Shown here piece by piece: positions 4,501 to 59,727 of a stretch of DNA of 64,000 nt (positions are counted from its first letter, which is position 1; every line of letters begins with the position of its first letter). The notes under the pieces were generated by a model, which ran no database searches, was not told where the DNA came from, and saw nothing but the letters and a program-made list of their open reading frames with translations. The DNA is from Chiloscyllium plagiosum (Eukaryota). The stretch lies in contig NC_057735.1 of the NCBI RefSeq assembly GCF_004010195.1, positions 11,080,065 through 11,144,064 on the forward strand, in the 5' to 3' direction. A program made the position numbers and the translations under genes.

Positions 4501-5244
4501 TCACATTTCCTATTTTTAAAGTATTTTTAACAAGTGCAGCTGTATTTCATTTAATCACTTATATATTGAACTTTACTTTCAATATTTGTTTTTAAAGACA
4601 ACTGATCAAGCCAAAATTACCGCAGATGTGAATTCAGTGGATATGTGGAGAGAGATGCTGGAAATTTGTGCAAAACAGTGTGTCACATAAACTTCAAAAG
4701 GATTGACATAAAGGGAGAAACACACAACAAGGTAAAATGTGTTCAGTCGGCGTGGTATGGGTTGGAAGACCGTTGTTCTGGTCTTTTATTTCAGCAATGT
4801 TGGACATTTTAATTCTCCATTTTCTGAGAGTTTGTAACTAAAGCAGCTGTACCTAGGTACCTTTGTACCGAAGATGTCACTGTAAGTGGTGACATATAAC
4901 CCTTTCACTGCACTCATTGAGTGTATGTAAAAATAAAGCTAATTCATTCCTTAAGCTAATTCACTCACTCATTCATTCCTTCATTCCTTGGAATTATCTC
5001 AGGGCTATGATCATGGTGGGAGAAATGTCAGCAATCTGGCTGAGAGATCATTTTCTTGGTTTCCCCCTTTCAGTTATACACATAGACAGGAGTTAAAAGT
5101 GAAATTCAATCCTGCTCTCTCTCTGTGTCAGTGGTCGGATCTCCTGATCTGTGGATAGTGTGATGTGAAGGTCACAGTTTGGTGAACAGCCATTAAATAT
5201 TCCCTGCATTGTGGGAAAAGAATGCGGTTATACTCTTTCTTATT

Positions 5245-5937
5245 TTTTGCAAGGTTTGTGAAGGTTTGTAGCTCAGGTTGAGGTTTAGGGTGTAGGATTG
5301 CTCACTGAGTTGTAGGTATGATATCCAGATGTTTCATTATCTGCCTAGGTAACATCATCAGTGGCGACCTCCAAGTGAAGCGAAACTGTTGTCTCCTGCT
5401 TTCTATTTATATGTTTGTCCTGGATGGGGTTCCTGGGGTTTGTGATGATGTCATTTCCTGTTCGTTTTCTACAAAATTCCATGCAAGCACTGCCAGAAAC
5501 ACTACGTAGGACAAACAGGAAGAAAGTTAGCCACCAGGATACACGAACACCAGCTAGCCACAAAAAGACGACCCTCTCTCCCTCGTAGCCCTACACACTG
5601 AGGCAAAAAAACCCACCATTTCGACTGGGACAACACATCTATCCTGGGACAGACTAAGCAAAGACATGCCAGAGAATTCCTAGAGGCCTGGCACTCCAAC
5701 CACAACGCCATAAACAAACACATAGATCTAGATACCATTTATCAACCCCTCAGAAAACGAACAGGAAATGACATCACCACAAACCCCAGGAAGCCCATCC
5801 AGGACAAACATATAAATAGAAAGCAGGAGGCAACAGCTTCGCTTCACTTGGAGGTCGCCACTGATGATGTTATCTAGCCAGGTAATGAAACGTCTGGATA
5901 TCAAACCTACAGCTCAGCGAGCAAACCTACACCCTAA
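5245..5937 (+). mobile_element. Penelope-like element, 5'-truncated, with inverted terminal copy and GIY-YIG endonuclease C-terminus
   Basis: From 5470: YKIPCKHCQKHYVGQTGRKLATRIHEH...HFDWDNTSILGQ...REFLEAWHS; ~5283-5470 is the inverted copy of ~5752-5938; TSD actctttcttatt at 5232-5244 and 5938-5950. Confidence 0.9.
5858..5897 (+). ncRNA. Minimal type I hammerhead ribozyme motif (PLE family 3)
   Basis: cca CTGATGA t GTTATC tagcca GGTAAT GAAAC GTC tgg: core boxes, stem I cca/tgg, stem II, palindromic ACGT stem III; inverted copy at ~5325-5364(-). Confidence 0.8.
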
Positions 5938-6397
5938 ACTCTTTCTTATTCCGAGTGCTGCCAGCCAGCATTTGTCAAAACAAACCTGACAAATGAATTT
6001 CAATTAACCTGCTCAACACCAAGAATCTCAATCAACTGCTCAGTGCTCCAAGTAACACCCACTGTCATGGCTGTAATGTTCTATTATCCACTCTTTATGA
6101 ACAACTCAGAGTCTCAACCTCTTTAAATAACTGTTATTATTTTCTTTAGACTCACTTCATACTCTCAATGGCTATAAATCAGTGTTATATTATTAATATT
6201 TCATTTGTTTAGTGAAGAGCAAACTCACTCAGTGTTAACTCAAGAAAGCCCAGTTAAATTGACTCCTCTTAGAACATAAACACATATGGTTTGGGAGAAA
6301 GGTAACCACAAAACAGAGAATACATTGTATTTTATTAATGCACAGATGAAATCAAAACAAACAAACTGCAGTTCTTGAAGCAGAAAGTATTATTTAC

Positions 6398-6718
6398 CTC
6401 GGCTCCCAATCTGTGCCATGAAACTGCAGTTCCTCTCTGATCTCTGGACGATTGCCACTTTCACCGTTTCACTGTATTTTTCTCCCTGAGTATTTGAGGC
6501 TATGCAGTAATATTGATGATATTGTTGTTTGATTAATTGACAATGTAGATCCAGTGTATTGCTTTCAGAAATCTTTGAACCTACAGATCGGGTCCTTTCG
6601 TACCATGTGTACTGAATGGGCAAGGATCCCTGGACAGATTCACAGGAGACAGAAACTAGGTTCTCAAAACACCAGATATTTGGTGTTAAAAATCTAATTA
6701 CAGGAACAGACACAGGTT
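6398..6718 (-). CDS. Gene C: C2-type Ig exon, FcR/PECAM-like (open, phase 1-1)
   Basis: cccacag|AA CCT GTG TCT...VSVSCESVQGSLPIQYTWY...YYCIASNTQG...GSR G|gtaaat; 321 nt. Confidence 0.88.
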
Positions 6719-6899
6719 CTGTGGGAAAGAAACAAATGATCAGATACTCACTGAGGATCGGAAAATCAAATAATCTGTAAATTTCAACATTTCTATCTTT
6801 TCATCCAAGTATTTTCTTGCTGGAATCTCCAACAGAGCCATGCCAATATCAACTTAATATTGCATTAATTGAGAGATTAACATACTGTAATTGATCCTC

Positions 6900-7960
6900 C
6901 AGAACACTTTAGAATATATTTAAGTGATCACTTGAAGTGCCAGACCATACAATGCTATAGGCAAAGTACTGGAACATGGGATCACGGTCGGTAGATGCTT
7001 CTTGACCAGCACGGACATGATGGGACAGAGGTTCTCTGCATCACGGTATTGTTCAATGAGGGAAGTAGACAGAGGGTGGGGAATTATAGACCAGTGTGCT
7101 TAGCCCATGTAATGGGGTAGATGCTTGAATATATTATCAAGGAAGGAATAGCAAGGCATCTCGAAATAAATTGTCCCATGGGTTCATGAAGGTCAGGTCG
7201 TGCTTCACAAATCTTTTGGAATCCTATGAAGACATTTCAATCAAGGTGGACAATGGGGACCCAGTGAATGTGGTGTACCTAGATTTCCACAAGGCCATTG
7301 ACAAAGTGCTGCACATGAGGCTGCTGAATAAGATAAGGATGCCTGGTGTTCGGGGTAGAGTATTAGTTTGGATCAAGGATTGGTTGACTGACAGGAAGCA
7401 AAGACTGGGGATAAATGAGTGCTATTCTGGCTGGCAATCAGTGACTAGTGGTGTGCCTCAAGGATCACAATTATTCCCAATTTATGTAGATGATGAGGAG
7501 TTGGGGACCACATGTACAGTGTCAAAACTTGCCAGTGATACGAAGATAAGTGGCAGAGCAAAGTGTTCAGAGGACTGTGAAACTTTGCAGAGGAACTTGA
7601 TACATTGAATCAGTGGGCAAAGATCTGGCAGATGGAATACAATGTTAGCCAATGTGAAGTCATACATTTTGGTAGGAAAAATAGATTATTACATGAACTG
7701 AGAAGGAACTTCTTCACCCAAAGGGTTGTTTGTCTATGGAATTCCTTGCCCAGGGAAGTAGTTGACGCTACTTCAGTAATTCCTTTTAAAGCTAAGGTAG
7801 ATACTTTTTTGAAAAATAAAGGAATTAAGGGATATGGTGAAAATGTGTGTAAGTGGAGCTGAATCCATGAAAAGACTAGCCATTATCTTATTGAGGGGCG
7901 GAGCAGGCTCGAAGGGCCAGACGGCCTATTCCTGCACTTTGTTCTTATGTTGTTGTTGTT
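6900..7960 (+). mobile_element. CR1 LINE RT fragment with 3' end
   Basis: HGFMKVRSCFTNLL..VVYLDFHKAIDKV..SGVPQGS; NFFTQRVV; 3' tail gaagggccagacggcctattcctg. Confidence 0.9.
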
Positions 7961-8015: not shown

Positions 8016-8226
8016 GAAGAAAGTGAGGACATGCTGATGTTGGAGATCAGAGTGGAAGAGTGTGGTGCTGGAAAAACACAGCTGGTCAGGCAGCATCCAA
8101 GGAGCAGGAGAATTGATGTTTCGGATATTATTCCTGATGAAGGGCTTATTGCTGAAATGTTGATTCTTCTGGTCCTCGGATGCTGCCTGACCGGCTGTGC
8201 TTTTCCAGCACCACACTCTCGACTCT
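8016..8226. mobile_element. PLE family-1 palindromic fragment with degenerate hammerhead
   Basis: Inverted arms ...gtggtgctggaaaaacacagctggtcaggcagcatcc / ggatgctgcctgaccggctgtgcttttccagcaccac; CTGATGAagggcttattgctGAAATGT at ~8134. Confidence 0.7.
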
Positions 8227-10280: not shown

Positions 10281-10402
10281 TTCCCCCCAATAAGTATCAG
10301 CATTGCTGGGGCACCTTAGGATATTGGAGCGTTCGTGGTTCCTCCCTGATAAAACATTGATTAGACATTTCATTTGAGATTAATAATCAATGAGAAATGT
10401 AC

Positions 10403-10723
10403 CATCAGATACTTCAACCTTCACAGCACATAATTCATCAATAACTTGTCTACCAATACCACAGCTGTACCATCCTGCATCTTTGATGTGAAGATCCTCC
10501 ATGGTCACAACAAATACTCCTTGTGCTGTGTTATCTTTGATTGACATCCTCCCTCGCTGTCCACCTGGATCAGTTGTTCTCACCAAATATGAGCAATGGG
10601 CAGACCGACCAAGACACCAGTATTTCATGTTGGACTTGAACCATGTGTCATATCTACAATTTATTGTGATTGATCTTCCCACAGTTCCAGTTACTTTTTC
10701 GTTTGTCCACAAATTTGATGAAG
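10403..10723 (-). CDS. Gene C: first V-type Ig exon, CD300/pIgR-like (open, phase 1-1)
   Basis: ctccccag|CT TCA TCA AAT TTG TGG..; GRSITINCRY..KYWCLGRSAHC..RMSIKDN..DAGWYSCG; B-F Cys pair plus the C-C' Cx7C-type pair typical of CD300/pIgR/TREM. Confidence 0.92.
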
Positions 10724-12739
10724 CTGGGGAGACAACTTTTCAGAAATTGGAAGAAAAAATAAGTTCTTAATACAAATAAATATCACTTAATACGTTTTAT
10801 CTCTGTACAAACTGCACTATATCTGTGACATATACGTTAGGAAGTATAATCTGGAATGATAAAGCAGAAGTGGGACCTTCAGCCCTTGAGAAGGTCATGG
10901 CTGATCTGGTTGTGTTCTGAACTTCCCTTTCCTATTTATTCCTGATCGCCTTTGATTCCTGTAACTATATGGGCTGTAATCCTTTTGATTACTTAGAAAT
11001 AAAGTTGGGACAAAAATTTATGGTTACTTCTGTGGAGTTTAATTTTCTGACCATGCAATTTAAAAATCATTCATGCGCCTGCATAGACATTATCATAGTG
11101 GATCGTTTATCAAGACATGTTTGAAAAAATACAATTTGTGTAATTCAAATGAATTATGTTTCAAAAAAGTTGTCATTAAACTTTTGTTGTTATTGTTGTT
11201 ATTGTTACTATTATAACTATGTTGTTATTGTTACTATTACAATAAAAGAACATTAAATTAAGGTTTTTTAAAATTATTTTTGATATGAAATGATAATGGC
11301 TCTGAATGATATATTTTCATTCTTCTTCATGGGGAGCTATGATGAAAGGTATCTGTACATATACGGATGTAAACATAATGTATATGTATCATTTTTAACT
11401 GATTTAAAATTTTGGCATTTGGGTGTTGGTCACTCTTGTGACATAGTTATTGACAGGGTTATAAAAGACAACGTCAGAGTGATCTTTCCAGAACAATGAC
11501 CTAATCCACACCTGTCAGCGAGCAGAGAGGAGTCTGCATACCTTCTGGAGTGTTAATAGATTATTGTTGACGTTGTGGAGTTTACGACAGCGTGACTAAA
11601 TAGTGAATGGCTCTTGCTTGTTTTCAATTCAAATAATTATTGACTTACTTTCCCTCAGAAAAATACAGTAAGCTAAACCTTTTGAGACAGGATTTGGTGG
11701 AGACCTGACTGGGATCAGAAGCAAGTATATTTTCTCAACTTAATTGCATCAGTACAGTTACTCTAATGTCAAGACTTAATTTGAGAAATTTCCAAACCAA
11801 GGGTACATCAAACTTTGTTTTGTCTGACACCTATGAGAGCAGGAGTGTACTGGTTAATCAAATATTCCGGTTGATCATGAGATCCATATAATCAATGTAA
11901 AAACACACACTAAGAAATCGAAACATAATGCAGGAGTGACAATACAGCAAGCTTACGGTATTTGAGGTGTATAACTTTGTGTGGTCTATTCAGAGTGCTG
12001 TTTCATAGCAGATAGCTAAGCTTACTTTCTTTTATCCTTTTTGTTCTTTTGTGTAATAAATCTCGGTTTTATTGCTTGATGAAAGAACAAGATGCATTGG
12101 CCAGCTCCCAAATTAAGGATCATCACAGTTAACAAAAAGTTAAGATTGCCAGAAGACAAAAGATTTGAGAGAAATCACTGAATTCCAGATTTGTGATTTG
12201 GATTCTTGATCAGAAGAATTCAGGTCTCTTTGCCAATGTTTTTCACCCATGACATTTCTGCAGAACTATCTGTCTTGGCGATGGATTTTGTGAATTAATG
12301 TTTGTGTGTTTTGGGATTAACATTTAATGAACTCCTTCAGGGTCATCCCCTTAAAATTTTCCTTTCCAGGAGGAATGCATGTGTTCTGAGTATTCTGGAA
12401 TATCACTTTGACTGTCTGCAGCTGCTTCCGTACTGACCTATCTCCAGTTCCCTTCAGCTCTATCAGCTTTCAGGTCCACACAGTTGCCTTTTAAAATTGA
12501 AAATATTAGTCTTACACCCTCTCCTCTCGCTGTCAACCTGGATAAGATCTTGGAAGCTTCAGTTATAATATGTGATGAAAATTTATGTTAATAGTACATT
12601 GTCTTCATTCACAATGTGTCCATAAATGTCAGAGCCAATCATTTAATTTGGAGTGTGGCTGTACGTCTTACTGGATTGACAGTGCCTCAGTGTCAGCATG
12701 ATCGCCCCACAGGCAGTTTGCAAATCTCTCATCGTGATG

Positions 12740-16783: not shown

Positions 16784-17082
16784 TTTCCTTGTTAGCTGCA
16801 GATATTTTTGCCACAGAAAGCACAGCTCGATATCTGCCAGTTTGCTTCCTTGTAGAGAATTGTTACCAGAAGGGTGTTGCAGATGTAGTTACTGACATCA
16901 TGCAATATGCTAATCATCCTGAGATGTCTTAGAAACAAAGCTGAAAATATAAGTGTCTAATGCTGCTGAAAAAATAAATGTGTCAAGAATTAACAACTTA
17001 AGACAGTGCCTACTAACATTGGGAACACAGGACAAATGTGAGTGCGCACTCACTCAAGAAGGTGCATGCACACATTTCCACA

Positions 17083-17463
17083 CCCTGCACAGTGTTGTGT
17101 CATGTACAGTTCCAGACCCTGCACGGTGTTGTGTCATGTACAGTTCCAGTCCCTGCACAGTGTTGTGTCATGTACAGATCCAGACCCCACGGTGTTGTGT
17201 CATGTACAGTTCCAGACGCTGCACGGTGTTGTGTCATGTACAGGTCCAGTCCCTGCACAGTGTTGTGTCATGTACAGTTCCAGTCCCTGCACAGTGTTGT
17301 GTCATGTACAGTTCCACACCCTGCACAGTGTTGTGTCATGTACAGTTCCAGTCCCTGCACAGTGTTGTGTCATGTACAGTTCCACACCCTGCACAGTGTT
17401 GTATCATGTACAGTTCCAGTCCCTGTGGGCTGTTGTGTCATGTACAGTTCCAGACCATGCACA
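17083..17463. repeat. 34-bp minisatellite, about 11 copies
   Basis: Unit ccctgcacagtgttgtgtcatgtacagttccag(a/t) at 17083, 17117, 17151, ... Confidence 0.95.
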
Positions 17464-17464
17464 A

Positions 17465-20469: not shown

Positions 20470-20626
20470 AGAGGTTTCAGAGCACTGCCCCATCGTCAGG
20501 TGACTTCACCTGAAGGACCAACGCTCAGAAAGCTTGTGATCTCAATAAACCTGATGCACTATAACCTGGAGTCATGTGACTTCTGACTTTGTCCACCCCA
20601 GTCCAACTCTGGCACCTCGACATCAT
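20470..20626. mobile_element. PLE family-2 short palindromic fragment (paralog ~45430-45585)
   Basis: tttcagagcactgccccatcgtcaggtga / tcacctgaaggaccaacgctcagaaagcttgtg...actataacctgg. Confidence 0.55.
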
Positions 20627-24540: not shown

Positions 24541-24943
24541 GTTGTTGAAACTTTATTGCTGGAACAGCACAGCAGGTCAGGCAGCATCCAGGGAACAGGA
24601 GATTCGACGTTTCGGGCACAGGCCCTTCTTCAGGAATGAGCAGAGAGTGTTCAGCAGGAGAAGATACAAGGTAGGGAGGAGGGACTTGGAGGAGGGGCGT
24701 TGGAAATGTGATAGGAAATGTGATAGGTTTTCCACCTATCACATTTCCAACGCCCCTCCTCCAAGTCCCTCCTCCCTACCTTTTATCTTCTCCTGCTGAA
24801 CACTCTCTGCTCATTCCTGAAGAAGGGCCTGTGCCCGAAACGTCGAATCTCCTGTTCCCTGGATGCTGCCTGACCTGCTGTGCTGTTCCAGCAATAAAGT
24901 TTCAACTTTGATCTCCAGCATCTGCAGACCTCACTTTCTCCTC
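24541..24943. mobile_element. Young PLE family-1 palindromic insertion with two intact hammerhead motifs
   Basis: ~170-bp near-perfect inverted arms (24544-24714 / 24735-24906); TSD cattttctcttcatca 24525-24540 and 24944-24959; empty site at ~51522-51537. Confidence 0.9.
24813..24848 (+). ncRNA. Minimal hammerhead ribozyme motif (family 1); mirror copy 24602-24637(-)
   Basis: attc CTGAAGA a GGGC ctgt GCCC GAAAC GTC gaat: stem I attc/gaat, stem II GGGC/GCCC, ACGT palindrome. Confidence 0.82.
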
Positions 24944-28270: not shown

Positions 28271-28466
28271 CTGTGTGCGTGCATGTGTGTGTGTGAAAAT
28301 TCTGGGGAAATGTAGTCCATGTCATAACTCCATTAGAATGTCCTAAGTGTGCATCCTCATCCAAGTGTCATCAGCACCACCAAGGAGCCTTGCACATTGC
28401 AGACTATCTCCTCACAGATTGACAATTCAATGTATGACCATTGTAACTGAGAATTGCTGTCTTCCA

Positions 28467-28602
28467 TTCCTGAAGAAGGGCTCATGCCTGAAACATCGAT
28501 TCTCCTGCTCCTTGGATGCTGCCTGACCTGCTGTGCTTTTCCAGCAACACATTTCCAGATCTGATCTCCAGCATCTGCAGTCTTCACTTTCTCCTGGAAG
28601 AC
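28467..28602 (+). mobile_element. PLE family-1 short insertion beginning at the hammerhead
   Basis: ttcCTGAAGAagggctcatgcctGAAACatc...; candidate TSD gtcttcca 28459-28466 / 28603-28610. Confidence 0.7.
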
Positions 28603-29339
28603 GTCTTCCACTCATAGCCATGCAGTGCATTACAGAAATAGCAAACCCAAGTGGCACTTTAAAATGAGCTTTTCTGATTACGTTCGCCTCGTTAATGGGA
28701 CACCGAGGGTGAACAGTGTTGTTGTCAATGATTGCTTAAGGCCATCAATTATAATGTTTATTTCTGGACAATGAGTGACCTGTTGTTGAAGTGTAATTTG
28801 ATGCCAGTGGTAGGACTGAATCAGTGGATGCATGGTGGATGCAATTGTCCCGAATAGGTTTCAAATTCATAGAATTTTATTCCAACACCCTTCCCATCTA
28901 AAATATGAATAAATGACTCCACCCCGACTCTGCAATTGTCTGTCAATCATTTTACACAGTTATTGTACAGCAACCTGGTCAGAATTGGTGAAATGTCAAC
29001 TGTGTGTTTTTGTGACAAAAACAGAAAGTGCTGGGGAAACACAGCAGGCCTGGCAGTTTCTGTAGAGAGAAAGCAGAATTACTGTTTTCGGTCCATTGAC
29101 CATTCTTCAGAAACATTAGTAGCTTCGATAAGGTGCTCCATACGCTGCAGACGCAGGAAGTTGGGTGTTTGTGTGAATTAACAGCAGACTCTACCTGTGA
29201 TGCAGAATGCTCCTTCTTCCTCTCTTTATTGTTGCTGTCCCTGTGGATCCAATTGTTTTTTGCCATCTCACCATTTCTGTTCATTCTCTCTCGATAGACT
29301 TGATGTTCCTAATTTCCCATCAGAGCCATGTCTTTGAGA

Positions 29340-41724: not shown

Positions 41725-42207
41725 CAGCACATTGGTTCAGTGGTTAACACTGCTGCCTCACAGCCCCAGTGACCTGGGTTCAGTTAAAACCTTGGGTGAC
41801 TGCGTGCAGTTTGCACGTTCTTCCTGTGTCTGTGTGTGTTTCCTCCAGGTGCTTCAGTTTCCTCTCACTGTCTAAATATCTTTTGCTGTAAATTCTGTAT
41901 CCTATGATCCTACTCCTCTATGTACCTGACAAAGGAGCAGCACTCCGAAAGCGTGCACTTCCAGATTAAACTGTTGGACTGTAACCTGATGTTGTGTGAT
42001 TTTTAACTTTAAATATGTGCAGGTTCGGTTGGGTGGTCGTGCTAAATTGCCCATTGTGTTCAGGGATGTACAGGCTCAGTGGGTCAGCCATGGGAAATGT
42101 GTGGCTATGGGAACAGAGTGGGGTTCTGGGTCTAGTGGGATGTTCTTCAGCTGGCTGGTGCAGACTAGATGGGCCAAATGGCTTCTTTCTGCACTGTAGG
42201 GATTCTA
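41725..42207 (+). mobile_element. HE1-type SINE with a PLE family-2 fragment nested at ~41875-42012
   Basis: cagtggttaacactgctgcctcacag...; nested cctgacaaaggagcagcactccgaaagc. Confidence 0.7.
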
Positions 42208-43897
42208 TAATTCTCAGTTACATTCCTCATTGACCAGGAACCTGTTTAATGGAATGAGCCCAAACTGAATGTGTGTTCATTTACAATGAGCCATTCACAT
42301 GCAGCATGCTGCAGACAGAAACATTTTTAGAAATAAAGTAGTTTTGGGAGGAAAACTATTTTACCAGATTTAAATTTTCATTGGATAAAATTTTTAAATG
42401 ATTCAGTTCTATTGAAGTTAATTTGGATTGCGATGTTTGGGATAAAAGTTCAAATTGTTTCAGAATGATAGGTGGATTTGCAGCTTTCTAAAAGCAGTGA
42501 GCTGAGAAGGACATTTATTTGTTTCAACGCCTTGCCTTGTTTGTGTGTTTGTGAATATGGCAAGTTACACTAATATAGCACCTTCAACGATGTAAAGCTG
42601 GAGCAGAGATATAGGTGAGTGTAAGTTGATGTATGATGGTAGATTCAAGGCCAGCTGGAATGATGTTGGAATAGTTCAGTGTGGAGCTTACAACATCGTG
42701 GATGAGAGCTCTGTTGGACAGGGAGATGGAGGAGTCCGTGGCTAAGGAAAGGTGATTGCAGCGGGATAAAGACAATGGCTTCAATCTTCAGAATTGTCAG
42801 CTGTAATTTTATTGAAGCTGTGAAATTGCAGAGGAGAAAGTGAGGTCTGCAGATGCTGGAGATCAAAGTTGAAACTTTATTGCTGGAACAGCACAGCAGG
42901 TCAGGCAGCATCCAGGGAACAGGAGATTCGACGTTTCGGGCACAGGCCCTTCTTCAGGAATGAGCAGAGAGTGTTCAGCAGGAGAAGATGGAAAATGAAG
43001 TGTTGTTCTTTGAACTTGCGTTAAGGAACACTGCAACAGATCTGGGACAGAAATGTTGGTGTAGGAACACAGTGGTGTGTTGAAGTGGAGGCAGTGGGAA
43101 ACTCTGGGTCATGTTTTACAGACAGAGTGTAGGTGTTCAGCAAAGCGGTCATCAAATCTGTGTTTCATCTCCCCCGATATACAGGAGACCACATTCTGAG
43201 CAGTGAATGAAATAAATGAGTTGAGAGAAGTGCAGGTAAGCTGCTGCTTCACCTGGAAGGTGTTAATTCTCAGTTACATTCCTCATTGACCAGGAACCTG
43301 TTTGAGGTTTTAATGGAATGGGCCCAAACTGAATATGTGTTCATTTACAATGAACCATTCACACACAGCTTGCTGCAGACAGAAACATTTTTAGAAATAA
43401 AGCAATTTTGGGAGGAAAACTATTTTACCAGATTTAAATTTTCATTGGATAAAATTTTAAAATGATTCAGTTCTATTGAAGTTAATTTGGATTGCGATGT
43501 TTGGGATAAAAGTTCAAATTGTTTTAGAATGATAGGTGGATTTGCAGCTTTCTAAAAGCAGTGAGCTGAGAAGCACGTTTATTTGTTTCAACGCCTTGCC
43601 TTGTTTATGTGTTTGCGAATATGGCAAGTTACACTAATATAGCACCTTCAAAGATGTAAAGCTGGAGCAGAGATATAGATGAGTGTAAGTTGATGCATGG
43701 TGGAAGATTCAAGGCCAGCTGGAATGATGTTGGAATAGTTCAGTGTGGAGCTCACAACATCATGGATGAGAGCTCTGTTGGACAGGGAGATGGAGGAGTC
43801 CATGGCTAAGGAAAGGTGATTGCAGCGGGATAAAGACAATGGCTTCAATCTTCAGAATTGTCAGCTGTAATTTTATTGAAGCTGTGAAATTGCAGAG
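42208..43897. repeat. ~625-bp direct duplication (42208-42833 / 43264-43897) flanking PLE fragments
   Basis: Direct reading; spacer holds family-1 terminus with intact hammerhead (42926-42961, minus) and a GIY-YIG fragment. Confidence 0.85.
42970..43262 (-). mobile_element. Penelope-like GIY-YIG endonuclease fragment (frameshifted)
   Basis: rc: FQVKQQLTCTS..IYFIHCSECGLLYIG..KHRFDDRFAEHLHSV. Confidence 0.75.
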
Positions 43898-44136
43898 ACA
43901 AGCACAATCACAGCAGGTAGGTCAGAGGCAGTCCTTAAACTGGATCAATGGGGATGGAGGCATCAACCATCACTATCAATCCCGAGCCGTATGTCTAGCT
44001 GTCTCCTTGGAGAGGTGAACAACTGTCATTTAGACTCAGGCTCAGCACTCAGTGTCTGCTGGATATGAGCCACTGGCAAGAAGATTCAGGATGTGGAGCG
44101 CTGCTGTTGGACCTGGGTGGACAAAGTTGGAAACCA

Positions 44137-44228
44137 TTCCTCAAGAAGGACTCATGCCCGAAACGTCGATTCTCCTGCTCCTTGGATGCTGCCTGACCTG
44201 CTGCGCTTTTCCAGCAATACATTTTCAG
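44137..44228 (+). mobile_element. PLE family-1 92-bp insertion nested in a family-2 element
   Basis: TSD caaagttggaaacca 44122-44136 / 44229-44243; empty paralog site ~27787. Confidence 0.8.
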
Positions 44229-47182
44229 CAAAGTTGGAAACCACACAACACCAGGTTATAGTCCAACAGGTTTATTTGAAAATACAAGCTTTTGGAACAC
44301 TGCTCCTTTGCCAGGTAGCCGGTGGGGCAGGATACATGGGACACAGGATTTATAATGTATTAGAAAATCCTAGATAGCAGTTAAGTCTTTAATCACATCG
44401 AATGGAGATGCAGGTTTCAATTGATTAATATTTAAATCCCAGAATCTCTTTCAAGTCCCTGCCCCAATACATCTTAAGGTTTTATCAGAAAATAACAAAA
44501 AAAGTGACATCTCATCCAGAAAATGTGTTAGAGATATGAGGTTACAGTCTGTCTGTGTTCCAACCTGGAGTCAGATTAGTTTTATTTCAAAGTAGGAATT
44601 TATAAAATGTAACATTGACTGACTGCCTCCAGATTGAGTGCTTTTTGAACAAAATACAATATATCTGCCAATACAAATCTGCAAACGCAAATTCACTCCA
44701 TCGATTTATGTTTGTGTGCACGCACGCACGCGCGTATGTGTGTATGTGTGTGTACCTGTGTGAAAGAGTGACGGGAGGGTTGATAGCGAAAGATGAGCGA
44801 CTCTCCAACCACACGGCATCAATTATCACTTCACCAGTTTCCTCATCTCTGCTTCCTCCACCTCATCCCAGATCAAATCCTCCAACCCGGCACTGCCCTT
44901 TTGAACTGTCCTACTTGTCCATCTTCCTTCCCACCTATCTGCTCCACCCTCCCCGCCATCCTATCACCATCACCACCCACCTGCATCTACCTATCACCTT
45001 CTGAACTACCCTCCCTCAGCTCCAGCCCCAGCCCCACGCTTCTATTTATCTCTCAACACACCTCTGCCCTGCCCCTTCATTCCTGATGAAAGGCTTCTGC
45101 CTAAAACTTCAACTCTCCTGCTCCTCAGATGCTGCCTAACCTGTTGTGCTTTTCCAGCACCACACTTTACAAGTCTGATTTCCAGCATCTGCAGTCTTCA
45201 CTTTCTCCTGGAGCTGAAAGAGCACTTGAAGCTTGAATGAGCACTTAAGGGTCTCAGTTAGTGGTAGGCTGGTGTTTTAAGATTAGATTAGATTCTCTGG
45301 TGTTGTTGAAGCTTGGACTTTCCTGCCAAGATCCAAATTTAATCAAGGATGGAGAAGAGGCTGGATTAGCTGCCCCACCATCCGAGCTAATAAAGCTTAC
45401 TTGCCAACTCCAGAGAAGATTGTGCCCAGAGGTTTCAGAGCACTGCCCCATCATCAGGTGACTTCACCTGAAGGACCAACGCTCAGAAAGCTTGTGATCT
45501 CAATAAACCTGATGCACTATAACCTGGAGTCGTGTGACTTCTGACTTTGTCCACCCCAGTCCAACACTGGCACCTCGACATCATGGCCCATAGGTTTGGG
45601 AGTGGAGCCTCTTACCTCAGCTACGATTCTGATGGGGAGAGTGTAGAGTTAATAAAATCCCACGGCTCCACAAGCAGAACCAAAGGTATCAATATTTCAT
45701 ATAGTCACTAAAATGGTTCAGTTTTTTCTATTTTTTACAGTTATTATAAACAAAAGAGATGTTCCTTTCATTTCTTTGATGTATTCCAAAAATAATTTGT
45801 TTATTAAAACAACCCATTTTTAAATCAATTGGCAGAACAGTGAGCAACCAAACTACATCCTCTTAATCTCAAACACAGATTCACACACAGAGAGGGGAAG
45901 ACCACACAGCTCTGCAAAGGGTTTGTGGGTGGGATAAATTCAGACAACAGGATAAGGCAGAGGATTTCTCTTCAAGTTAGTTCAGACATTTAGGCCAGAA
46001 ACACAATCTCTTTTAAAAGCTTCAGGTTGCCTACTTCCCAAAATTATTTGTTGTTCCAGTACATGGCAAAAAAAACACTTTGCTTTGACCTTTGACACTT
46101 TTCCAGCAATCACATGTTAAATACCTCTTCAACCCAATAATGTCCAACCAATTCCATTTCCCAATTGTTGTAATCCAGAAACACTGTGGAATACCAGCTT
46201 TAATGTTGCTGTGATGCCAAGGGTGTAGGCTGACTATATCAGACAACACTGCAGGCCAGCAGTGAGCCAATCATGTTAACGAGCCCATACTGTAATCCCA
46301 GGGTGACATATCCAACATTAGACATGATGCTGCTGTTGAACAATATTGAACAATCCCACCTGTGCACAGAAACACACCAGAAACCAGTTTCAGATTATCT
46401 ACTGGGCTTGCAGTATGATTCATTTGTGCAGGCTAGAAATTACATATATTACTACTGAGGGCTCTGTTCTTTCCAGGAAAATGAATATGTCCGTACATCT
46501 CACCTCTTTAATTGAGGAGAGAATCATGCACTTTGCTAATCATTGCAGCCTGAACCAATCAGAGCTTACTTGGCTGGTCTGAGTTTAATCAGTTAAGCTT
46601 GCTGGTTAACAGTTCCTGCTGCATCTCCATGCCAACCATTATCCAAACAATTTGCACTCCCTTCTCATGCTGTTTATATTGATATTTCCTTTTGAAGTTT
46701 AGTTTCTTGTGGCTTAGTCCTGATGAGAATGGAACAACACCCTTAACTTTTGCATCTCTTTTTAACAATGTGCAAGTTCTGTATCACACAATCATTAGGG
46801 TCCCATAGTGCCATGCTAGCACGTCAAGTTTGATTTTTGAACTTAGCTCTGGGAATGAGGCTCCAACCTGGAATCTGTGACTCAGAGGTTAGAGTGAGGG
46901 GAACCAGGAAGATGGGGACTGATTGGGTTGACAAACACCTTGATATTTGGAAAACTGTTCTTGCTATTTTTATGCAAATGATCCGGACTTGGGAATTAAA
47001 GGTAAATTGATTCCATTTGCTGAGGAAACCAAACTGGAAAGAGCATGGAATTGTTGGGAACAAATCCTAAGGAGTTGGACAAAGTAAATGTGTGGGCAGC
47101 TTACAACAGGCAAAATTAAATACAACTGCATTGTAAAGTAAGAAGGAAAAATGAACAGTATTAATATCTCATCATGGTTTTC

Positions 47183-47879: not shown

Positions 47880-49289
47880 ATAAAAATCACACAACACCAG
47901 GTTATAGTCCAACAGGTTTATTTGGAAGCACTAGCTTTCGGAGCGCTGCTCCTTCCTCAGGTGGTTGTGAAGCAGGACCATAAGACACAGAATTTGTAGC
48001 AAAAGGTGACAGTGTCATGCAACTGAAATGATATATTGAACAAACCTAGATTACAGTGGAACCTCAATTATCCGAATGAGATGGGCGGACAGTATTTTGT
48101 TTGGATAATTGATTATTCAGAGAATCAATTTGATCTTAAACAAGGGAAGCCATACTGATCTAACACTGTGCTCTACTGGAGAATTTGTTTCAATCTATAA
48201 TTTTGACGAGTTGCTATTTAAACAAACTAATCTTTGCATTCTGCAATTTGCAGGTTAAAGTGAGAACAACTAAACCCTTATCATCACATAAATATATGAA
48301 ATCCCAGCATTAAATAAGGTCCCGAACAGCTTCTCCAATCATAAATGCATTTGTCAGTGTCCTCGGAACTCAGTGTCGTGATAGAAAGACAGAATCTCTG
48401 CTTCACTCATGCGTTTACTTTCTCCATCATTTTTCTCACGATCAGCCTGGCAAAGTGATGGGAATAAAGCACTTACTTTTGCAAAGGGCTGTGTAACTAA
48501 CCCTGAGGTAAATAAAAAACAGTCGCTGTTAGTTGAGGTGCTTGTGTTTCTTTGTTTTTGCCAACATTTTCTCATGTTCTTTTGTACAGGAAATCTGAAT
48601 ACACTTACCTGTAATGTTTTTAAAGGACCTTGAGATCTTGTTTGGATAATCCGAAATTTGGATAATTGATATCCGGATAATCGAGGTTCTAATGTATTGT
48701 AATGCCTTTCATCTTTCAGAATGGGTTGCAGGTTTCATTAATATGTAAAGCCCAGAATTTCTTTGAAATCATTCTCAAGATAACTTAAGGTTTTATGAAA
48801 AAAGGTAACATCTCAGCTCAGACAATGCATTAAATGTATGAGCTTAGAGTCTGTCTGTATCCCAGTCTTGAGTCAGACTGGTTCTATTTCCAAAGTAAAA
48901 TTTACAAAATATTACATGGATTAGCTGCCTGCATTGACTGCCTGCAGATTGTACATTTTTTTGAGCAAAATAGAACCTTAAGTTATCTTCAGAATGTGAC
49001 TTAAAAGAAGTTCTGGGATTTACATACTAATGTACTGAAATCTGCAACCCATTCTAAAAGAAGAAAAACTTAACAACAATCTAGGTTTGTTCAATATATC
49101 ATTTCAGCTGCATGACTCTGTAATTATTTGTTATAAATTATTTGTCTTATGGTCCTGCTTCACAACCGTCTGATAAATGAGCAGCACTTTGAAAGTTAGT
49201 GCCTCCAAATAAACCTGTTGGACTATAACCTGGTGTCATGTGATTTTTAACTTTGTTCAGCCCAGCCCAACACCGGCATCTCCACACCT
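47880..49289. mobile_element. PLE family-2 inverted-repeat insertion with intact hammerhead (47929-47963, minus)
   Basis: TSD tgtgaagaaag 47869-47879 / 49290-49300; empty site ~23121-23131; rc cac CTGAGGA a GGAGC agc GCTCC GAAAGCTA gtg. Confidence 0.85.
48054..48694. mobile_element. Tigger/pogo-like MITE nested in the PLE
   Basis: ta|cagtggaacctcaattatccg ... cggataatcgaggttctaatg|ta; TIRs and TA duplication. Confidence 0.8.
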
Positions 49290-50842: not shown

Positions 50843-52339
50843 CTGGGATATTGAGAATAGAAAAGGGACAGTTTTAGTTCATAATCGATCCTTGGTTATT
50901 TGATGCAAGAACTACATTAAGAAAGACTTTCATGATCTCAGGACATCCAAAAGCAATGCAGGAAGTGAAATACTTGTATCAAATGTTGTATTGGCAAACA
51001 TGGTATTCAATTTGCACAGAGTATGCTTCCACAAATAATAATTAGGAATTAAGGGTTTGCCCGAAACATTGATTTTCCTACACTTCGGATGTTGCCTGAC
51101 CTGCTGTGCTTTTCCAGCACCACTCTAATCTTGACTCTGATCTCCAGCATCTGCAGTATCTAACTCCGCCTTGTCAATAACTGAATAACAACCGAAGAGC
51201 TGACCTATGATCACTTTCGCCTACTTCATTTACACAAACTTATGCAGCAAAAATGCAGATATGACCGCAAATAGAATTTATAAACTTTCAATGCATTTTG
51301 AATCAGGGTATTATCTGTTTAAAAACAAATGAATAACATGTGCTGGAGACCTGAATGAAAAACAGAAGTTGCTGGAAAGGTATAATCAGACAGTATCTGG
51401 GGGTTGCTTCGGATGTGGACTAGAATTGTGAAGAATTCTGCACTGAACTATTTCTGCCCAAATGTGGACTAAATCACACTGCGTTTCCAATATTCTCCAT
51501 TTCTGACTGACACTTAAGTGGCACTTTCTCTTCATCACCATTGTAACTTCAAAGAATTATTTCCTCAGTGTTTATATCACACTTACAGTTCCTGCAGCTT
51601 ATTTCCGACAGCTCAGGCTGATGAACTCAGGCTAAAGCCTAATGCTGCAAGCTATCTGTCCCTGTGCAGAGGTATCACTTCAAACCTTCCTTTTCACCAG
51701 CAGGAATGACACTATCCTGAAACGTCACTCAAGATCACAGCAGCAAGGTACGTTTGGCAAGCAGGGGACATCACACATGATGTAGTTTAATGGTGAAGTA
51801 ATGAAGCTGAGCAATGCCATCTGAGGGCCAACAAAATAGAAACAATTATTTTCCATTTGTGCTTTTCAAAAACAATTGAACCTTTAATATGGAACTAACA
51901 CAGGAGCCCAATATAAACCCAGCACCATTTTCATTTCCAAAATAACAAAACCTTTCACTTATGTGGCTAAAACTGTTAAAAAAAATTGTTCATCTCGCAC
52001 ATGGAATCAAAACAAATAATATCATACTTTTCATGGGAATTCTTTCCTGGGGACTGGTTTTGACTGGTCGAGAAATTTCCACTTGTAATTGTGGAATGTG
52101 TAGTTCCTGGTGATGTTGTTGACGAAACAGCACAAGTATATTGTTCACCTGTTAAAACAAGGGAATGATGTTCAGATTCATCTCCCTTTCTCTTGTTGTT
52201 ACCCAAGAGAACTTTATGAACAAATGGAACCTCATTACTTGGGGAAAAGCCTATTTGCTAGCATGGAGTTTTGCATTATTGTCCCTTCCCTGGTAACAAT
52301 GACACATATAAGTGGGCTAATTCTACTGAAAATGTTAGA

Positions 52340-53990: not shown

Positions 53991-56900
53991 TGAATCTGAG
54001 AGCTGATGTGTTACATCTCGATTTGTTAAAGGCTTTGGGCTGGTAACTAACACCAGATATCCTACGTGTTTAAAACCACAGGTTTCACATGGAGCTGTCA
54101 CTTACTGATACAGGCAGGGGTTACTTATATCCTGTAAGCTTGCAGGAATAATGGGAAACTTATCCACAGGCACATACCCACCATCTCCTGAACCGTATGT
54201 AGCCATGAGGCAGAAAGATGAGGTTCCCCATCTCTGAGGAGTACTCAGCCAACACGGCTTGGGTGTGTTTTAAATGAATTACTTTGGCAACAATTAACCT
54301 GTTAATTCATTATCTTTTAATCTTTAATGGCCAGCTTTTGTTGCCCATTCCTAATTACCCCTGACTGAGTGACTTTCTAAACCTTTTGAAGAGGGCAGTT
54401 AGGAACAAACTGGAGGCCCATGTAGAGCAGACCTGGAAAGGCTAGAGATTTCCTTCCCTAAAGGACATTAATGAATCAGATGGGTTTTGGTACATCACAG
54501 GATCTGAGGAGATGGAAACAAACAGTTGGAATGCAACAATATCTCAAACTTAAATTGCAGCAGCCAATAGCATTGAAATAATTCTATCAAAAATCTGATT
54601 GTTTTTAGTAACATTGATTGAGGAATGAATGCTTGCTCGAACACCAGGAGAACCTCTATTCTGTAAATAGTTTACATATGGTGCCATTCCTAAAGGGGGA
54701 ACAGGTTCTCAGTTTCTCACCTCATCGATACTGTCTCACCTGCCACAGCACAGCATTACTTCTCTCTGCTGGGCAGTGGGATCCAGCCGAATCTTAACCC
54801 CGAAGGGGAACTGGAACCCCCAACATGCTGCCATCAGAAGTGAGAGTGCAGCCACATGAGCTGCTGCTGATAGTTCCAAATACAGTTCCCGGGTGTCACT
54901 TCGACTTGATGCTGACTTGCTTCTTCTCTGACAGCTCAAACAGATCATATCAGGAAATGGCTGCAGGCAAGAGTATTGGTTTAAATCAGAACTGACAATG
55001 AAACAAGTGGAGTGCATTTTATAACTTACAGTTTTGCAGAATGAGATGTTAAACATGTGCATCACACTTACCGATGCAATTGGCATTTATTTTATAACTG
55101 CAGTTCTTCTTTGTTACATTATTGACTGAGACATGAACAATTTCACTGGGTTTTGTTCCCTGAGTATTTGAGGTTGTGCAGTAATATTGATGATGTTGCC
55201 GTGTGAAAGATTGACAATGTAGATCCAGTTTATTGGTGTCAGAGATCTTTGAATCTTGAGATGGGGTCTTCTCAGACCATGTGTAGTGAATGGGGACAGA
55301 TCCCTGGGCAGACTCACAGGAGACTGTCATTGAGCCCCCAGAACATGAGACAGTAAGTGGGGATAAATATCGAAGTCCGAACATGAGACAGTAAGTGGGG
55401 ATAAATATCGAAGTCCAGGAGCAGAGGTAGCTTCTGTGGGGAAGAAACAATTATTGAGAGATCAAAGATCAAATATCCTTCAATACTTGGCCAGTTTTCT
55501 TCCTGGATAAAACACTGATCAGATATATCAGCTGAGAGTAATTTAAAAAAGTCACTGAAACATTTACCATCAGAGATGTGCAGCTCTACATTAAACATTG
55601 GGTCAAGGCCAGGAGTCTCAATCCCACAGCTGTCTGTACCATCCTGCATCTCCCCATTGAAGGTTCGTGATTGTGACAAGAAATATTCCTTGTGTTTTGT
55701 TATCAGTGATTGATATTCTCCCATTTGGCCAATTTGTCATTGCTATAACCTTACACTGACGAGTCCATCCTTGACACCGATATTTCATGTTTGATTGGTA
55801 CTGCTGCGCTTCGGAGTGACAAGATATTGTGATTGCTCTTCCCAAAATTCCCGTTATGTGTTTCTCTGTCCATAAAGCATCTGAAACTGAGGAGACAATA
55901 TTTCAGAAATTTGACTGGAAAAAACTCCTTAATACATTTTAATCAGCTACATTGCATCTAGCTCATGGTGAAGTTAATCCCTTATCACAGCGTCAGGCTG
56001 TTCCAAATTCCCAGGGAATGATTGAAACAGTTGGGATATTTTCTTTCCCCACTGGTCGAGCTTTGGGACAATCTTGAAATTGGGTTTGTGCTGCCCGCAG
56101 TGGGCTCTAACTCCAACGTGTGTGACATCATCGAAATGTTTCCCCCCCCGGAGAGCAGCCTGAGTGACAGGCCTGGATTGGAGTTGGCTGGGGATCAGTG
56201 TGAAGGAGGGCACAGATGCTGATTGGTCCTTACTGTGACTGGAGGAGAAGGGACTGTGTGTAGACTTATGGTGGGCTCAGGGGCTACATTTCCAAGGCTC
56301 ATGGGGCAGATACAACAGGTGACCCAGGAGGATGATGGGAGACCTGATGTGGGAGAAGAAGAGAATTGAAGTTCAGCAAGGGATGGTTCACGATGGGAGA
56401 GAGACATCAATGTGGAGGATCTTGAGGGCAGTAAAGGCAGGATGGTTTGTAATCACACATTGTTGTCAGTGTGAGGAGAGAAAAATAACAGAATTATTTA
56501 CTGATTTTGCTGAGTGTTGCTTAATGAGAAAATATTTAAATTGCTGCCACATTGTGTCCCGGTGGGGAAGAGGAGCAGCCTGTTGATGACGGGGTAAATT
56601 TACTTCAATAAATAGCAGACTAACAGGCTTGTTGGGAGAACCGCCCTTTGTGTGGGGAAGAATTTTCAAGCAAAATGACAAAAAGGGTTTTCAACCTCAG
56701 TGAAGAGGTGGAGAAGAGAGAAGAAAGGGAGGAAGATACATGAATGATGAAAGGTGATGAAAGCCAGGAAACAGAGACCTTATTGGATAAAGGAAGCTTT
56801 GAAAGAAAGAGAATTGTGAAAACAGAGGGATGCACACTTCAGGTTTCTATCTGTGAAGTATTCTGCATGAAGTTGGTGGGTCAGAGCCACAACATGTTTC

Positions 56901-57072
56901 AGGAAGGTTTCATGTAACAGAATTCATTGCGTTGTAGCTTAGAGTCAATGCAACATGGGAATTTTAATCTTGAGTGTTTCAAAATCATTAGTGGAGAGAT
57001 TGCAATGATGAACAATACTTTTATTGCAGTGTTACATTGTAACATGTAAACCAATGGGATTGAAAGATAGTA

Positions 57073-57280
57073 GCTGGAACAGAGCAGCAGGTCAGGCAGC
57101 ATCCAGGTAACAGGAGAATTGACGTTTCGGGCATAAGCCCTTCTTCAGGGGATTCCTGAAGAAGGGCTTATGCCCGAAACGTCGATTCTCCTGTTCCCCG
57201 GATGCTGCCTGACCTGCTGCGCTGTTCCAGCAACACATTTTAAGCTCTGATCTCGAGCATCTGCAGACCTCACCTTCTCC
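57073..57280. mobile_element. PLE family-1 mini-palindrome with back-to-back hammerheads
   Basis: gacgtttcgggcataagcccttcttcagg gga ttcctgaagaagggcttatgcccgaaacgtc; TSD attgaaagatagta 57059-57072 / 57281-57294; empty site ~39110. Confidence 0.88.
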
Positions 57281-59727
57281 ATTGAAAGATAGTAAACAAC
57301 TTGATTCAAGTTAGACTGAAAGGAAAAAAAGCTTTTTTATGCAAAGAGAAGTGTAAAACGTCCATCTGCTTTTGTGACTGAGCCTCACAGATGTATACTT
57401 AATGAACTGGATTTCTAAACTAAAATAACAGAAATAAAAGCAAACTCAAGATGTTTTGTTTGAGGCCTTATTTCCACCCTAGTTTTAGTGGCTACTGAAC
57501 ATTGAAAATTTTGGACAAATTAAGGTAATTATGATGCTTTATTTTTGATTTAAAATCAACATTATTTATCCTTTTTATTTAATGAATAATTAATGCTACT
57601 CTGAAGTATTTGGGAACTCTGCCACCTGGGATGATAATATGTTCGGGAGCGGCAGTACATTTTGTAATGTTGTTCAGGTATGCATGGGACAGACAAAGCA
57701 AATGCTGTGTCTGTTTTCTGCAGCTTATCACTTGCCTGAGTTGTTGCAATGTGAAGGGTGGCAACCTGCATTGAATAAACATGACTTGGAATCTCACCCA
57801 GTCCTGCTCCCTACCCTGGGTATGTTGGAAGGTTGATAATGAACCTGTTTGGTTTTGTGAGAATACACATTCCTTTGCAAAAGTGCTGAATGAGAATCAA
57901 ACTCTCAGCATTTGACACGGCAATAACAATGTTACCCATTGTGTCACAAGCTCTGCCTTTATCCCTTTATACATCTTCAGCAATTTAAACATTTCCACTG
58001 CATAAACCACACACTGGACTTCAAGAAACATTGGTTTCTAAATATACAACTCAGATGATCACTCACCAGGAATGGAACAAAAGTCTACATTGATTTATTC
58101 ACAAAGTTCATGATGTCAGTCTCTCAGCTCTGTTCCTCACTTTGAAATAAGTGTGGACTGCAATGTCTACAAGACGTTAAATGAGTAAGAGGATATCGGA
58201 AACCAGCTTCTGAGACCACAGTGAGCCAGAGAGTGGAATTTAACCCTAAAGACATTTTTCTTCGATCAGTTATACTCAACAGAAGAACTAACTTCATATT
58301 CATTGAAACAATAGAAAATTCTGAAATCAAGACAGTTAATGCATTAGGTGCAGAGGTAATGTTGACCCAAGCTTAGTATTTATAGTGAAATCCCAGGTGA
58401 ATGATTACTGGCTTATTCTCTCATGTTCTTAAATTTCAACAATAATTTTTGGCAAATATAGATTTCTTTTCCAAAAATTAATCATGCAGCTAAAAAAGAA
58501 CTGTTTTGAATATTTTGTCTGTTTGCAGAATCTGCCTCCTGTTAGCGTTGAATAATTATTGTGTCAGGATCTGAACTTCTAGATATGCAGGAGAAGGACA
58601 CCCTCTGCTCCATTTCCACTAGATCCAAGGAAACAAGACATGGGGCCGATTTCAGGCAAAGAAAGGAACTCAACAACAGAGAAAAAATTCAGGGGGAAGT
58701 GAGCTGTGATTGAGTAACTGGGAGTGAACTTCAATTCCAAGGTGAGGATCCCTCTGGTGAACCGACTGACATGGGGCTTTGTATTCACCAGGACATGGTT
58801 GATGATGAGTGAGTCTGGTGAACCATGCTGGGTTTCACCTTTGAGAAGATCAAAGGGACTGACACGCTTCATCAACCGTGCTCATCCCCAGCCCCAATGC
58901 TGAAGGCAGTGCCCCCACCTTAACCTTTAATATGGAAGGAGAGTCACTGGAGTCATTACCCAGAGACTGAACCAACGAGGACCATCGCAATGCTCTGTCT
59001 GGGAAACAGAAACAATACGTTGGGTAAACTCCTGGAGAACACTTGGAAACATTTGGGAGTTAATATCCCAATGGGGATGAAACCCCTCTGCTGTCAGGTC
59101 ACCAGTGTCTGAGGGTCAGAAACAGAGAGCAGAGATCCCCCAGCCCCTGAATGACATGGACACTGTAGAATCAGTTGGAAAAATAGACCAGATTGAAAAA
59201 TATGATTCTGTGATGAAACAGTGATGGCAGCAGTTATTAACAAAGTGAAGAATATCTGATCTAATTGTCAGGGGTCCTGTAAAGTGACTTGTTCAGTGTC
59301 AAAGCCATATCCTGGTAGACGGGCACTCAGCAGTTTTTAAAAGACCGTTCTTCTGAGACAAACAATTGCAGGACCTGGAGCTGCCACAAATCCCCTCCCC
59401 CATTCGGATGGATGTCCCATTTGCTCTGGAATGGTGCAGTGATCCACCCACAACATGGACATGAGCCTGTCCCAGGAGGTTTCCTTCCCAGAGATTGTGA
59501 TCAATGGGCTGGGTCTGAAAATTCTCAATACAGCCTTGAATGACCCAGAGTGCACCACCCACAATATCCTGTTTATTAACACTTACTCTCATTGTACATC
59601 CATGGGTATTTATCACACATTCTCCTTGATAATATTTGCATTTTTCTTATAGTGCCAAATGACAATGAACATCAAAACATGCAACAAGTGTGGAAACGTA
59701 TTTTTTACACCTCAACTTCTCAAAATG

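Follow-up and report, generated by a model that had tools for sequence, protein, structure and literature searches.

What are the short, ribozyme-bearing repeats that are so frequent in the shark Chiloscyllium plagiosum: a mobile family of their own, or a by-product of a larger element? The question is raised by a stretch of 64,000 nucleotides (contig NC_057735.1, positions 11,080,065 to 11,144,064; hereafter the window), which contains many copies of a minimal hammerhead ribozyme motif. A preliminary description, made from the sequence alone, placed these motifs at the ends of three families of Penelope-like elements (PLEs) and suggested that the repeats, which resemble short interspersed nuclear elements (SINEs), may be mobilised non-autonomously. 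The motifs are genuine type I hammerheads of the minimal form and belong to the 3' terminal repeats (pseudo-long terminal repeats, pLTRs) of PLEs. The short SINE-like copies are probably by-products of autonomous PLEs, namely strong-stop complementary DNAs (cDNAs), and not a mobile family of their own. We consider this likely because many of the short copies start at a sharp edge, because none of the 100 measured starts at the ribozyme cut site and because a TATA or TATA-like box lies upstream of the edge.

The edge was measured in family 1, in which +1 denotes the first base of stem I. Young copies with a break at most 57 nt upstream of a fixed anchor were searched for by pattern; there were 7,793 matches, the first 100 of which were measured. 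Sixty of these copies start between -1 and +5, 25 of them at +1 itself. Six start between -20 and -2 (three of these are tandem junctions), two at +34 and none at +33, the base after the cut; on this count (0/100) the idea that genomic copies begin at the cut site was rejected. Among solo copies 23/37 start at -1 to +5 (p = 6e-13 against a uniform distribution), and 23/37 have target duplications of 6-16 nt. The same edge is found in an unselected sample of 447,598 bases (the window plus ten 40-kb blocks), where 8/24 family-1 copies start at 0 to +4. In four of 100 listed copies the break is between 15.1 and 15.2, a position within the palindrome and 4 nt ahead of the cut site; a single one of the 100 measured copies has such a break, and this may be chance.

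The other families have a comparable boundary. In family 2, 13/30 copies share only 4-9 nt before C3 (three of the 13 are long copies with a different or deleted upstream part), and inspection by eye gave the same picture. Fifteen of the 21 family-4 copies share at most 8 nt upstream and five share at least 36 nt; later starts were hidden by the search pattern. Counted by eye, about 31 of 100 broken family-3 copies start within -5 to +3 relative to the A of TTCACTT; positions -5 and -4 account for 16 of these.

Copies that keep the upstream part were scored for a promoter motif, and all four families have a TATA or TATA-like box 29-32 nt upstream of the edge. TATAAA occurs at -32 or -30 in 16/22 copies of family 2, at -29 or -27 in 4/8 of family 4 and 30 nt before the peak in 20/22 of family 3; in family 1 the sequence TTTTAT is at -32 in 42/67. 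The edges of families 1 and 4 (TCATTCC and TCAGTTC) match the initiator consensus YYANWYY. This consensus and the TATA spacing of -30 are textbook values. A downstream promoter element overlapping the palindrome was also considered and dropped because the match was weak. The repeat as a whole consists of the TATA(-like) box, about 30 nt, the sharp edge, the hammerhead within the next 60 nt and two preferred 3' ends about 36 nt apart.

The same edge could arise if the short units were ordinary 5'-truncated PLE ends and the pile-up reflected RNA or cDNA structure instead of an RNA start, either because the reverse transcriptase (RT) pauses or because the new GAAT end folds back on stem I. Truncation at the 5' end and inversion are known PLE traits, and inverted junctions account for 60 of the 100 broken arms, many of which are at palindromic or microhomologous spots. 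Furthermore, families 1 and 4 have their edge exactly at the start of stem I, and there is a second, small peak of starts at +14. However, the solo copies with target duplications have the same edge (23/37), and in families 2 and 3 it precedes stem I by about 5 and 17 nt but is still 30 nt from TATAAA. The distribution of starts is a cliff with a downstream tail and not a spread. We regard simple truncation as a rather improbable source of the edge.

At their other side, all 100 measured family-1 copies end at +91 to +101 or at +126 to +131, and two 3' ends 35-40 nt apart occur in each of families 1-3 in the unselected sample. In the same sample 37/75 arms of family 1, 19/33 of family 2 and 6/7 of family 3 are in head-to-head pairs. 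The two 3' ends and the head-to-head pairs are the known tail and inversion pattern of PLEs. Sequence behind the long end is rare, with 315 matches as compared with 17,507 ends; about 98% of the young family-1 ends lack it. At the loci that have it, it breaks off within a short stretch in 10/10, and most of these ten breaks are jumps back into the repeat, often near +1, which result in tandems of 194-224 nt. Head-to-tail units of this size, each with an intact hammerhead, are present at L032:6940-7800, L031:2297-2934, L183 and L184; they were formed by jumps from the start of the open reading frame (ORF) back to near +1.

These data bear on the suggested non-autonomous mobilisation, in which the short units would be a true SINE- or retrozyme-like family, itself transcribed, processed by the hammerhead and copied in trans by PLE proteins. 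Such a family would account for the fixed ends, the very high copy number and the existence of head-to-tail 194-224-nt units (14/100 listed places, judged by eye); pLTR-derived retrozymes are moreover reported from vertebrates, one chondrichthyan among them, in the accessible part of the literature. However, the short copies have no private changes and occur in each subfamily alongside long copies. The TATA box is absent from them, as is the sequence behind the RT start sites that the anole protein needs, and the tandem junctions differ from locus to locus, as expected for template jumps at insertion. The bulk of the copies are solo or head-to-head and do not form a self-propagating non-coding lineage of tandem units. 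For most copies non-autonomous mobilisation was thus not supported: subfamily by subfamily, the short copies are identical to the endonuclease-linked 3' repeats, and the scarcity of sequence behind the RT start sites in young family-1 ends also opposes a separate family. We consider an independent family very unlikely, while the small class of 194-224-nt tandem units looks retrozyme-like.

The placement of the repeats at the termini of distinct PLE families was borne out by their linkage to an endonuclease or RT, family by family. A GIY-YIG domain adjoining a tandem of the motif was the entry point to the family-1 loci. The family-1 repeat is located about 210 nt behind this domain, on the same strand, in 17/30 loci selected by endonuclease; most of the others reach N gaps. 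Locus L059 encodes an RT (YIDD), a CX4CxxC linker and GIY-YIG in one frame, of which the initial 50 residues come from another repeat (Pfam E values of 2.5e-6 for RVT_1 and 3e-4 for GIY-YIG, in both cases slightly below the curated cut-offs). RT together with endonuclease (EN) was also found for family 1 in L167, L168 and L170-L172, and the linker before the endonuclease reads CNRRRCNTC. Family 2 has a second linker-bearing endonuclease (CHGRRCKTC), 30% identical to that of family 1, which is present as the EN end only, about 560 nt upstream in 2/30 loci and inverted in a third. The long 3' region that separates it from the TATA box includes a (CA)n-rich stretch (L086:925-1500; window 44316-44800). 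In family 3 the endonuclease, again the EN end only, is directly upstream in 24/30 loci and in the window, where it lies inside a 13-bp target duplication; the Cys linker is absent in five long copies.

According to the accessible text of Craig et al. 2021 (PMC8557442), Neptune elements have a CX2-5CxxC linker and Poseidon elements have none. Because of this rule we class families 1 and 2 as putative Neptune-type and family 3 as putative Poseidon-type elements; the assignment is by linker and not by tree, and Nematis also has the linker. Family 4, which is homologous to family 1 downstream of the motif, appears to be one older Neptune-related PLE family. The closest named relatives of the element protein are from carpet sharks and rays. 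In the family-1 leader (L045:2025-2278) the likely ORF start is at +167 (MPSLKKLSAS...), and the two RT start sites are both overlapped by an AUG frame upstream of it. In family 2 the hammerhead core itself contains a short AUG frame.

The hammerheads were searched for with a strict descriptor (CUGANGA, stem II of at least 4 bp, GAAA-NN-UH, stem I of at least 3 bp). It gave six matches in the window as compared with a mean of 0.01 in 100 shuffles (maximum 1), and 14 matches in the unselected sample as compared with none in each of ten shuffles. The seven motifs of the preliminary description were all found at their positions, and this search, similar to the one that it had proposed, recovered the minimal type I core with stems I and II at almost no background. 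All 14 strict matches have exactly one extra base after A9, and the motifs have a loopless palindromic stem III, as had been described; in all DNA examined one extra base is present in 147/148 hammerhead contexts. Other details required correction. Of five family-1 copies said to end in gaat, three fit the pattern; 57152+ has gatt with a U.U in stem I, 57117- is missing a portion of the 5' strand where the inversion is joined, and both fail the 3-bp stem I rule. The window contains about 27 arms (13 of family 1, 11 of family 2, two of family 3 and one of the fourth family), i.e. about 20 degenerate or cut copies and not roughly ten. The three families stand, but a fourth, at 29015-29112 on the minus strand (stem I AGUU/AACU, stem II GGGUC/GACCC), had been overlooked. 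An Rfam scan of the window produced 27 weak matches, all of them under the gathering score and none to a hammerhead family; its microRNA matches are the hairpin formed by head-to-head pairs.

Covariation was assessed among the families of this genome. The covariation predicted in the stems was seen between families 1 and 4, where both sides have changed in two of the four stem I pairs and in one stem II pair (ten hand-picked copies, in effect one lineage contrast), but within family 1 there was none, stem II included. Family 3 has the paired variants CCA/UGG and UCA/UGA in a few copies. In 41 family-1 copies of the unselected sample, variation outside CpG is mainly at N7 (46%), in loop II (up to 44%) and at 1.3; the catalytic core is intact in 28/41, and G12 shows CpG decay in 7/41. 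Stem I is fully paired in the youngest family-1 subfamily (24813-24848), while older, commoner ones (57152-57187) have U.U or U.C at 2.3-1.3. The hammerhead is the minimum-energy fold of the isolated family-1 motif and lies above the minimum by 1.0 (family 2) and 3.0 (family 3) kcal/mol; the duplex of the 4-bp palindrome has only -1.7 to -2.5 kcal/mol. Together, the fold and variation data fit selection in active masters, neutral decay in their copies and dependence of the motif on a partner or protein. The paired changes between families 1 and 4, like the variation pattern of family 1, support selection that acts on the fold in master lineages. The likely start codon of family 3 (A9-U-G10.1; L137-L166 and the window) takes its U from the extra base, and so cutting would remove the cap and the start codon. 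The frame from this AUG is open to the short end in 26/30 copies; the junction with the remaining ORF was not seen.

It is conceivable that these elements retain the motif because it binds a protein or forms part of the promoter, and that no RNA is cut in them. This concerns catalysis only and is compatible with the strong-stop origin of the short copies. Neither the genomic copies nor the RNA ends pile up at the cut site, and stem I is mismatched in the most abundant subfamilies. The accessible literature points the same way in two cases: 8/9 Xenopus dimers were uncut in vitro, and hammerhead mutants left insertion in vitro unchanged in the anole (PMC11167929). However, the four families, though unrelated or diverged, retain every catalytic position while their stems change in pairs, and protein-assisted cutting with C3G/G8C rescue is described for the anole motif in the part of PMC11167929 consulted. 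A purely structural role seems unlikely to us.

The route by which the short copies may form is as follows. Transcription would start at the edge. The element protein would nick the target, and reverse transcription would begin inside the RNA at +95 or +131, proceed through a presumably uncut hammerhead and run off the RNA 5' end at +1. The short cDNA could then be joined to the target by microhomology or fold into a head-to-head pair; alternatively, it could jump to another template site and produce longer or tandem copies. Longer copies would need a read-through tandem RNA, a circle or a jump. Once inserted, the motifs would undergo neutral decay, for the most part at CpG. Cutting by the ribozyme would require a dimer or the element protein, a step that is taken from other species.

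One may extend this scheme and suppose that PLEs replicate in a manner similar to long terminal repeat (LTR) elements, with the hammerhead as a repeated 'R' region, a strong-stop cDNA and a cut in the 3' repeat (or circle ligation) that enables transfer. The transferred cDNA would continue into the RNA 3' end and thereby rebuild the pLTR. As a whole this proposal is tentative and, in our opinion, doubtful; we lean towards its strong-stop half taken by itself, and the role of hammerhead cutting in cDNA transfer is a conjecture. If the full proposal is true, failed transfers have filled the shark genome with several hundred thousand ribozyme-headed stubs.

A number of observations weigh against the strong-stop interpretation or the assignments on which it builds. 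The 100 measured family-1 copies are the first on one contig, were filtered by pattern and lie in 77 regions, so that paired arms among them are not independent. Short copies are a minority in family 3 (290 broken as compared with 2,805 intact matches, with the edge counted by eye), and the family-1 box TTTTAT is non-canonical. The 2.3-1.3 pair is missing in 38/41 family-1 copies (present in 3/41), which leaves a stem I of 2 bp plus a mismatch, and in a 260-nt context stem I is weak, with a pair probability of 0.13-0.2. A full-length element with 5' and 3' pLTRs was found in 0/8 and 0/10 chosen loci, many of which reach N stretches, and the ORF of family 4 was not located, no ORF search having been made for it. 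In RNA run X19, the species of which is possibly not that of the window, there is no place where many molecules start or end, the cut site included, albeit in a library unfit to prove absence; run X20, of similarly uncertain species, has no reads on the element. The 802 reads of X19 are from both strands, and 88% run into unlike flanks; their depth steps up at +1, as do contigs of run X15. This coverage looks like host read-through and is no test of start or cut.

The repeats were described as very abundant, and pattern counts across the genome agree. A 33-mer of young family 1 has 11,629 exact or near-exact matches. The family-1 core geometry has 109,250, as compared with three for a reversed control, in a pattern that does not require stem pairing. 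The patterns of families 2, 3 and 4 (the last one older) have 1,629, 2,805 and 159 matches, respectively. BLAST on the unselected sample found 75, 33 and 7 arms of families 1, 2 and 3; extrapolation gives a rough estimate of several hundred thousand arms in the genome. The count is not a record, since the axolotl has 126,247 type I motifs in a genome about eight times larger, according to the part of Li et al. 2026 (bioRxiv 10.64898/2026.07.22.740005) consulted.

The features of the window are listed in Table 1. The repeats are set in a cluster of tandemly duplicated immunoglobulin-domain exons, which may resemble CD300/pIgR-like receptors. The segments at 19.8-26 kb and 44.8-52.5 kb are about 90% alike. 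The head-to-head pair at 24541-24943 has an empty paralogous site near 51522-51537; because the pair is missing from this duplicated segment, it is a recent insertion.

Table 1. Features of the window. Positions count from its first base; for minus-strand copies the preliminary description quoted the lowest coordinate.
Feature	Position	Strand	Basis or remark
Family-3 (putative Poseidon-type) insertion	5232..5950		13-bp target duplication, 5232-5244 and 5938-5950
Inverted terminal repeat with tail, family-3 insertion	5245-5470	minus	sequence
5'-truncated endonuclease end and 3' repeat, family-3 insertion	5470-5937	plus	sequence
Second family-3 hammerhead, in inverted arm; palindrome decayed to ACAU	5325..5364	minus	sequence
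GIY-YIG endonuclease remnant with one stop codon, strand as hammerhead	5470..5769	plus	translation; Pfam GIY-YIG E 0.0019, 18.9 bits (below cut-off of 22.6)
TATAAA box with G5841, a preferred start of short family-3 copies, 30 nt downstream	5811..5816	plus	same place in 20/22 copies; pile-up counted by eye
Family-3 minimal hammerhead, 7-bp stem II closed by G.U, ACGU palindrome	5858..5897	plus	descriptor
AUG formed by A9, extra U and G10.1 of family-3 hammerhead	5867-5869	plus	sequence
Old head-to-head family-1 pair	8018..8215		sequence
Young head-to-head family-1 insertion	24541..24943		16-bp target duplication, 24525-24540 and 24944-24959; minus arm stops at short end, tail on plus arm
Family-1 hammerhead, inverted arm	24602..24637	minus	descriptor
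Family-1 minimal hammerhead, AUUC/GAAU, extra A, GGGC/GCCC, ACGU	24813..24848	plus	predicted cut after C24844; A24813 is +1, where short family-1 copies pile up
Short family-1 unit, +1 edge to long end, CpG-decayed	28466..28594	plus	sequence
Decayed copy of fourth, older family, homologous to family 1	29015..29112	minus	sequence
Solo young family-1 copy, hammerhead 42926-42961	42831..42989	minus	paralogous segment near 43886 without copy
Short family-1b unit starting at +1 edge, core mutated	44136..44229	plus	inside old family-2 copy; 15-bp target duplication
Family-2 minimal hammerhead, CAC/GUG, extra A, GGAGC/GCUCC, AGCU palindrome, CUA triplet	47929..47963	minus	descriptor; putative Neptune-type repeat around it extends to about 47876
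Head-to-head family-1b pair joined at hammerhead 5' edge	57073..57280		14-bp target duplication; stem I U.U mismatch
Hammerheads of the 57073..57280 pair	57152-57187; 57117-57149	plus; minus	sequence
Further decayed arms	20131, 20472-20618, 27751-27877, 39743-39949, 41924-42010, 44229-44354, 45079, 45430-45576, 49162-49256, 51058
Immunoglobulin-superfamily cluster exons	2623-3195, 6390-6800, 10308-10774, 33441-33807, 36582-37253, 55049-55936	minus	V-set E 3e-10; C17orf99-type Ig domain
Decayed long interspersed nuclear element (LINE) pieces	1-962, 7129-7608, 26133-27338, 62187-62868		endonuclease-like frame; RT E 1e-17 at 62187
Tandem arrays	17072-17463; 32325-32480		34-nt unit; 12-nt unit

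What is new here is a host, together with new families of a kind described in 2014, and the spacing of the TATA box relative to the edge across four families. The useful part lies in the boundary statistics: near-identical copies, in thousands, mark a 5' edge and two RT start sites and leave no mark at the cut site. These marks bear on two points unsettled in the literature, namely why EN-containing (EN+) PLEs keep the hammerhead and how their terminal repeat is rebuilt. Neither shark PLE hammerheads nor strong-stop PLE copies were the subject of any paper in our literature search, which lay outside subscription papers, Repbase, Dfam and some supplements.

The closest known motifs are the PLE hammerheads of Cervera and De la Pena 2014 (PMC4209133). 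As far as this source was accessible, it gives the consensus CUGANGAH, a base between A9 and 10.1 and a palindromic 15.2-16.2. The extra core base, to which the preliminary description gave most prominence, is thus present but not new; like the palindrome, it was already published in 2014. The type I fold and the loopless stem III are also shared, most copies in both cases are solo or in close opposite-strand pairs, and a link to Neptune, Poseidon and Xena is reported. In contrast, no cartilaginous fish appears in its Fig. S3 and supplement as consulted; with the shark, a cartilaginous fish joins the hosts of the motif, at an unusually high density. The counts given there are 4,000 in the coelacanth and 9,000 in Xenopus, as compared with 109,250 here for one pattern that includes no stem-pairing test. 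Family 3 also differs in that stem II is closed by G.U in most copies.

The Poseidon element PAc of Anolis carolinensis (Frangieh et al. 2024, PMC11167929) is informative for the mechanism. In the accessible text, RT starts inside the RNA at tail sites in vitro, 5' cuts in the template shorten the product, uncut RNA is the main substrate and cutting is assisted by the protein. As in the shark, two 3' ends define the tail, no RNA reads end at the cut site, uncut RNA serves as template, as proposed here, and A9-U-G10.1 is a start codon, as is likely for family 3. Unlike here, the same text contains no mapped transcription start or genomic pile-up of 5' ends; in addition, the family-1 RT start sites of the shark precede the likely ORF start at +167 and thus fall within the 5' leader. 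The printed anole template carries an AT-rich box some 45 nt ahead of the core, which predicts an edge some 15 nt ahead of it.

The EN+ PLEs of Craig et al. 2021 (PMC8557442) and Arkhipova et al. 2013 (PMC3846280) have the same order of RT and C-terminal GIY-YIG, and the parts consulted describe 5' truncation, an adjacent inverted copy and a tail of 30-40 bp, as found here. A putative TATA box and initiator are noted there in a rotifer pLTR. The truncation is described as variable, self-priming on an antisense template is proposed, and in these parts the 5' ends are not tied to a promoter motif. Drosophila Penelope, according to the literature, has a TATA-less promoter with an intron. Finally, the non-LTR retrozymes of Cervera and De la Pena 2020 (PMC7229834) and of Li et al. 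2026 (bioRxiv 10.64898/2026.07.22.740005) are, in the accessible text, likewise derived from pLTRs, with one hammerhead per unit. The rare 194-224-nt tandem units of the shark resemble them, whereas nearly all copies in this genome have the minimal motif and stand alone or in head-to-head pairs.

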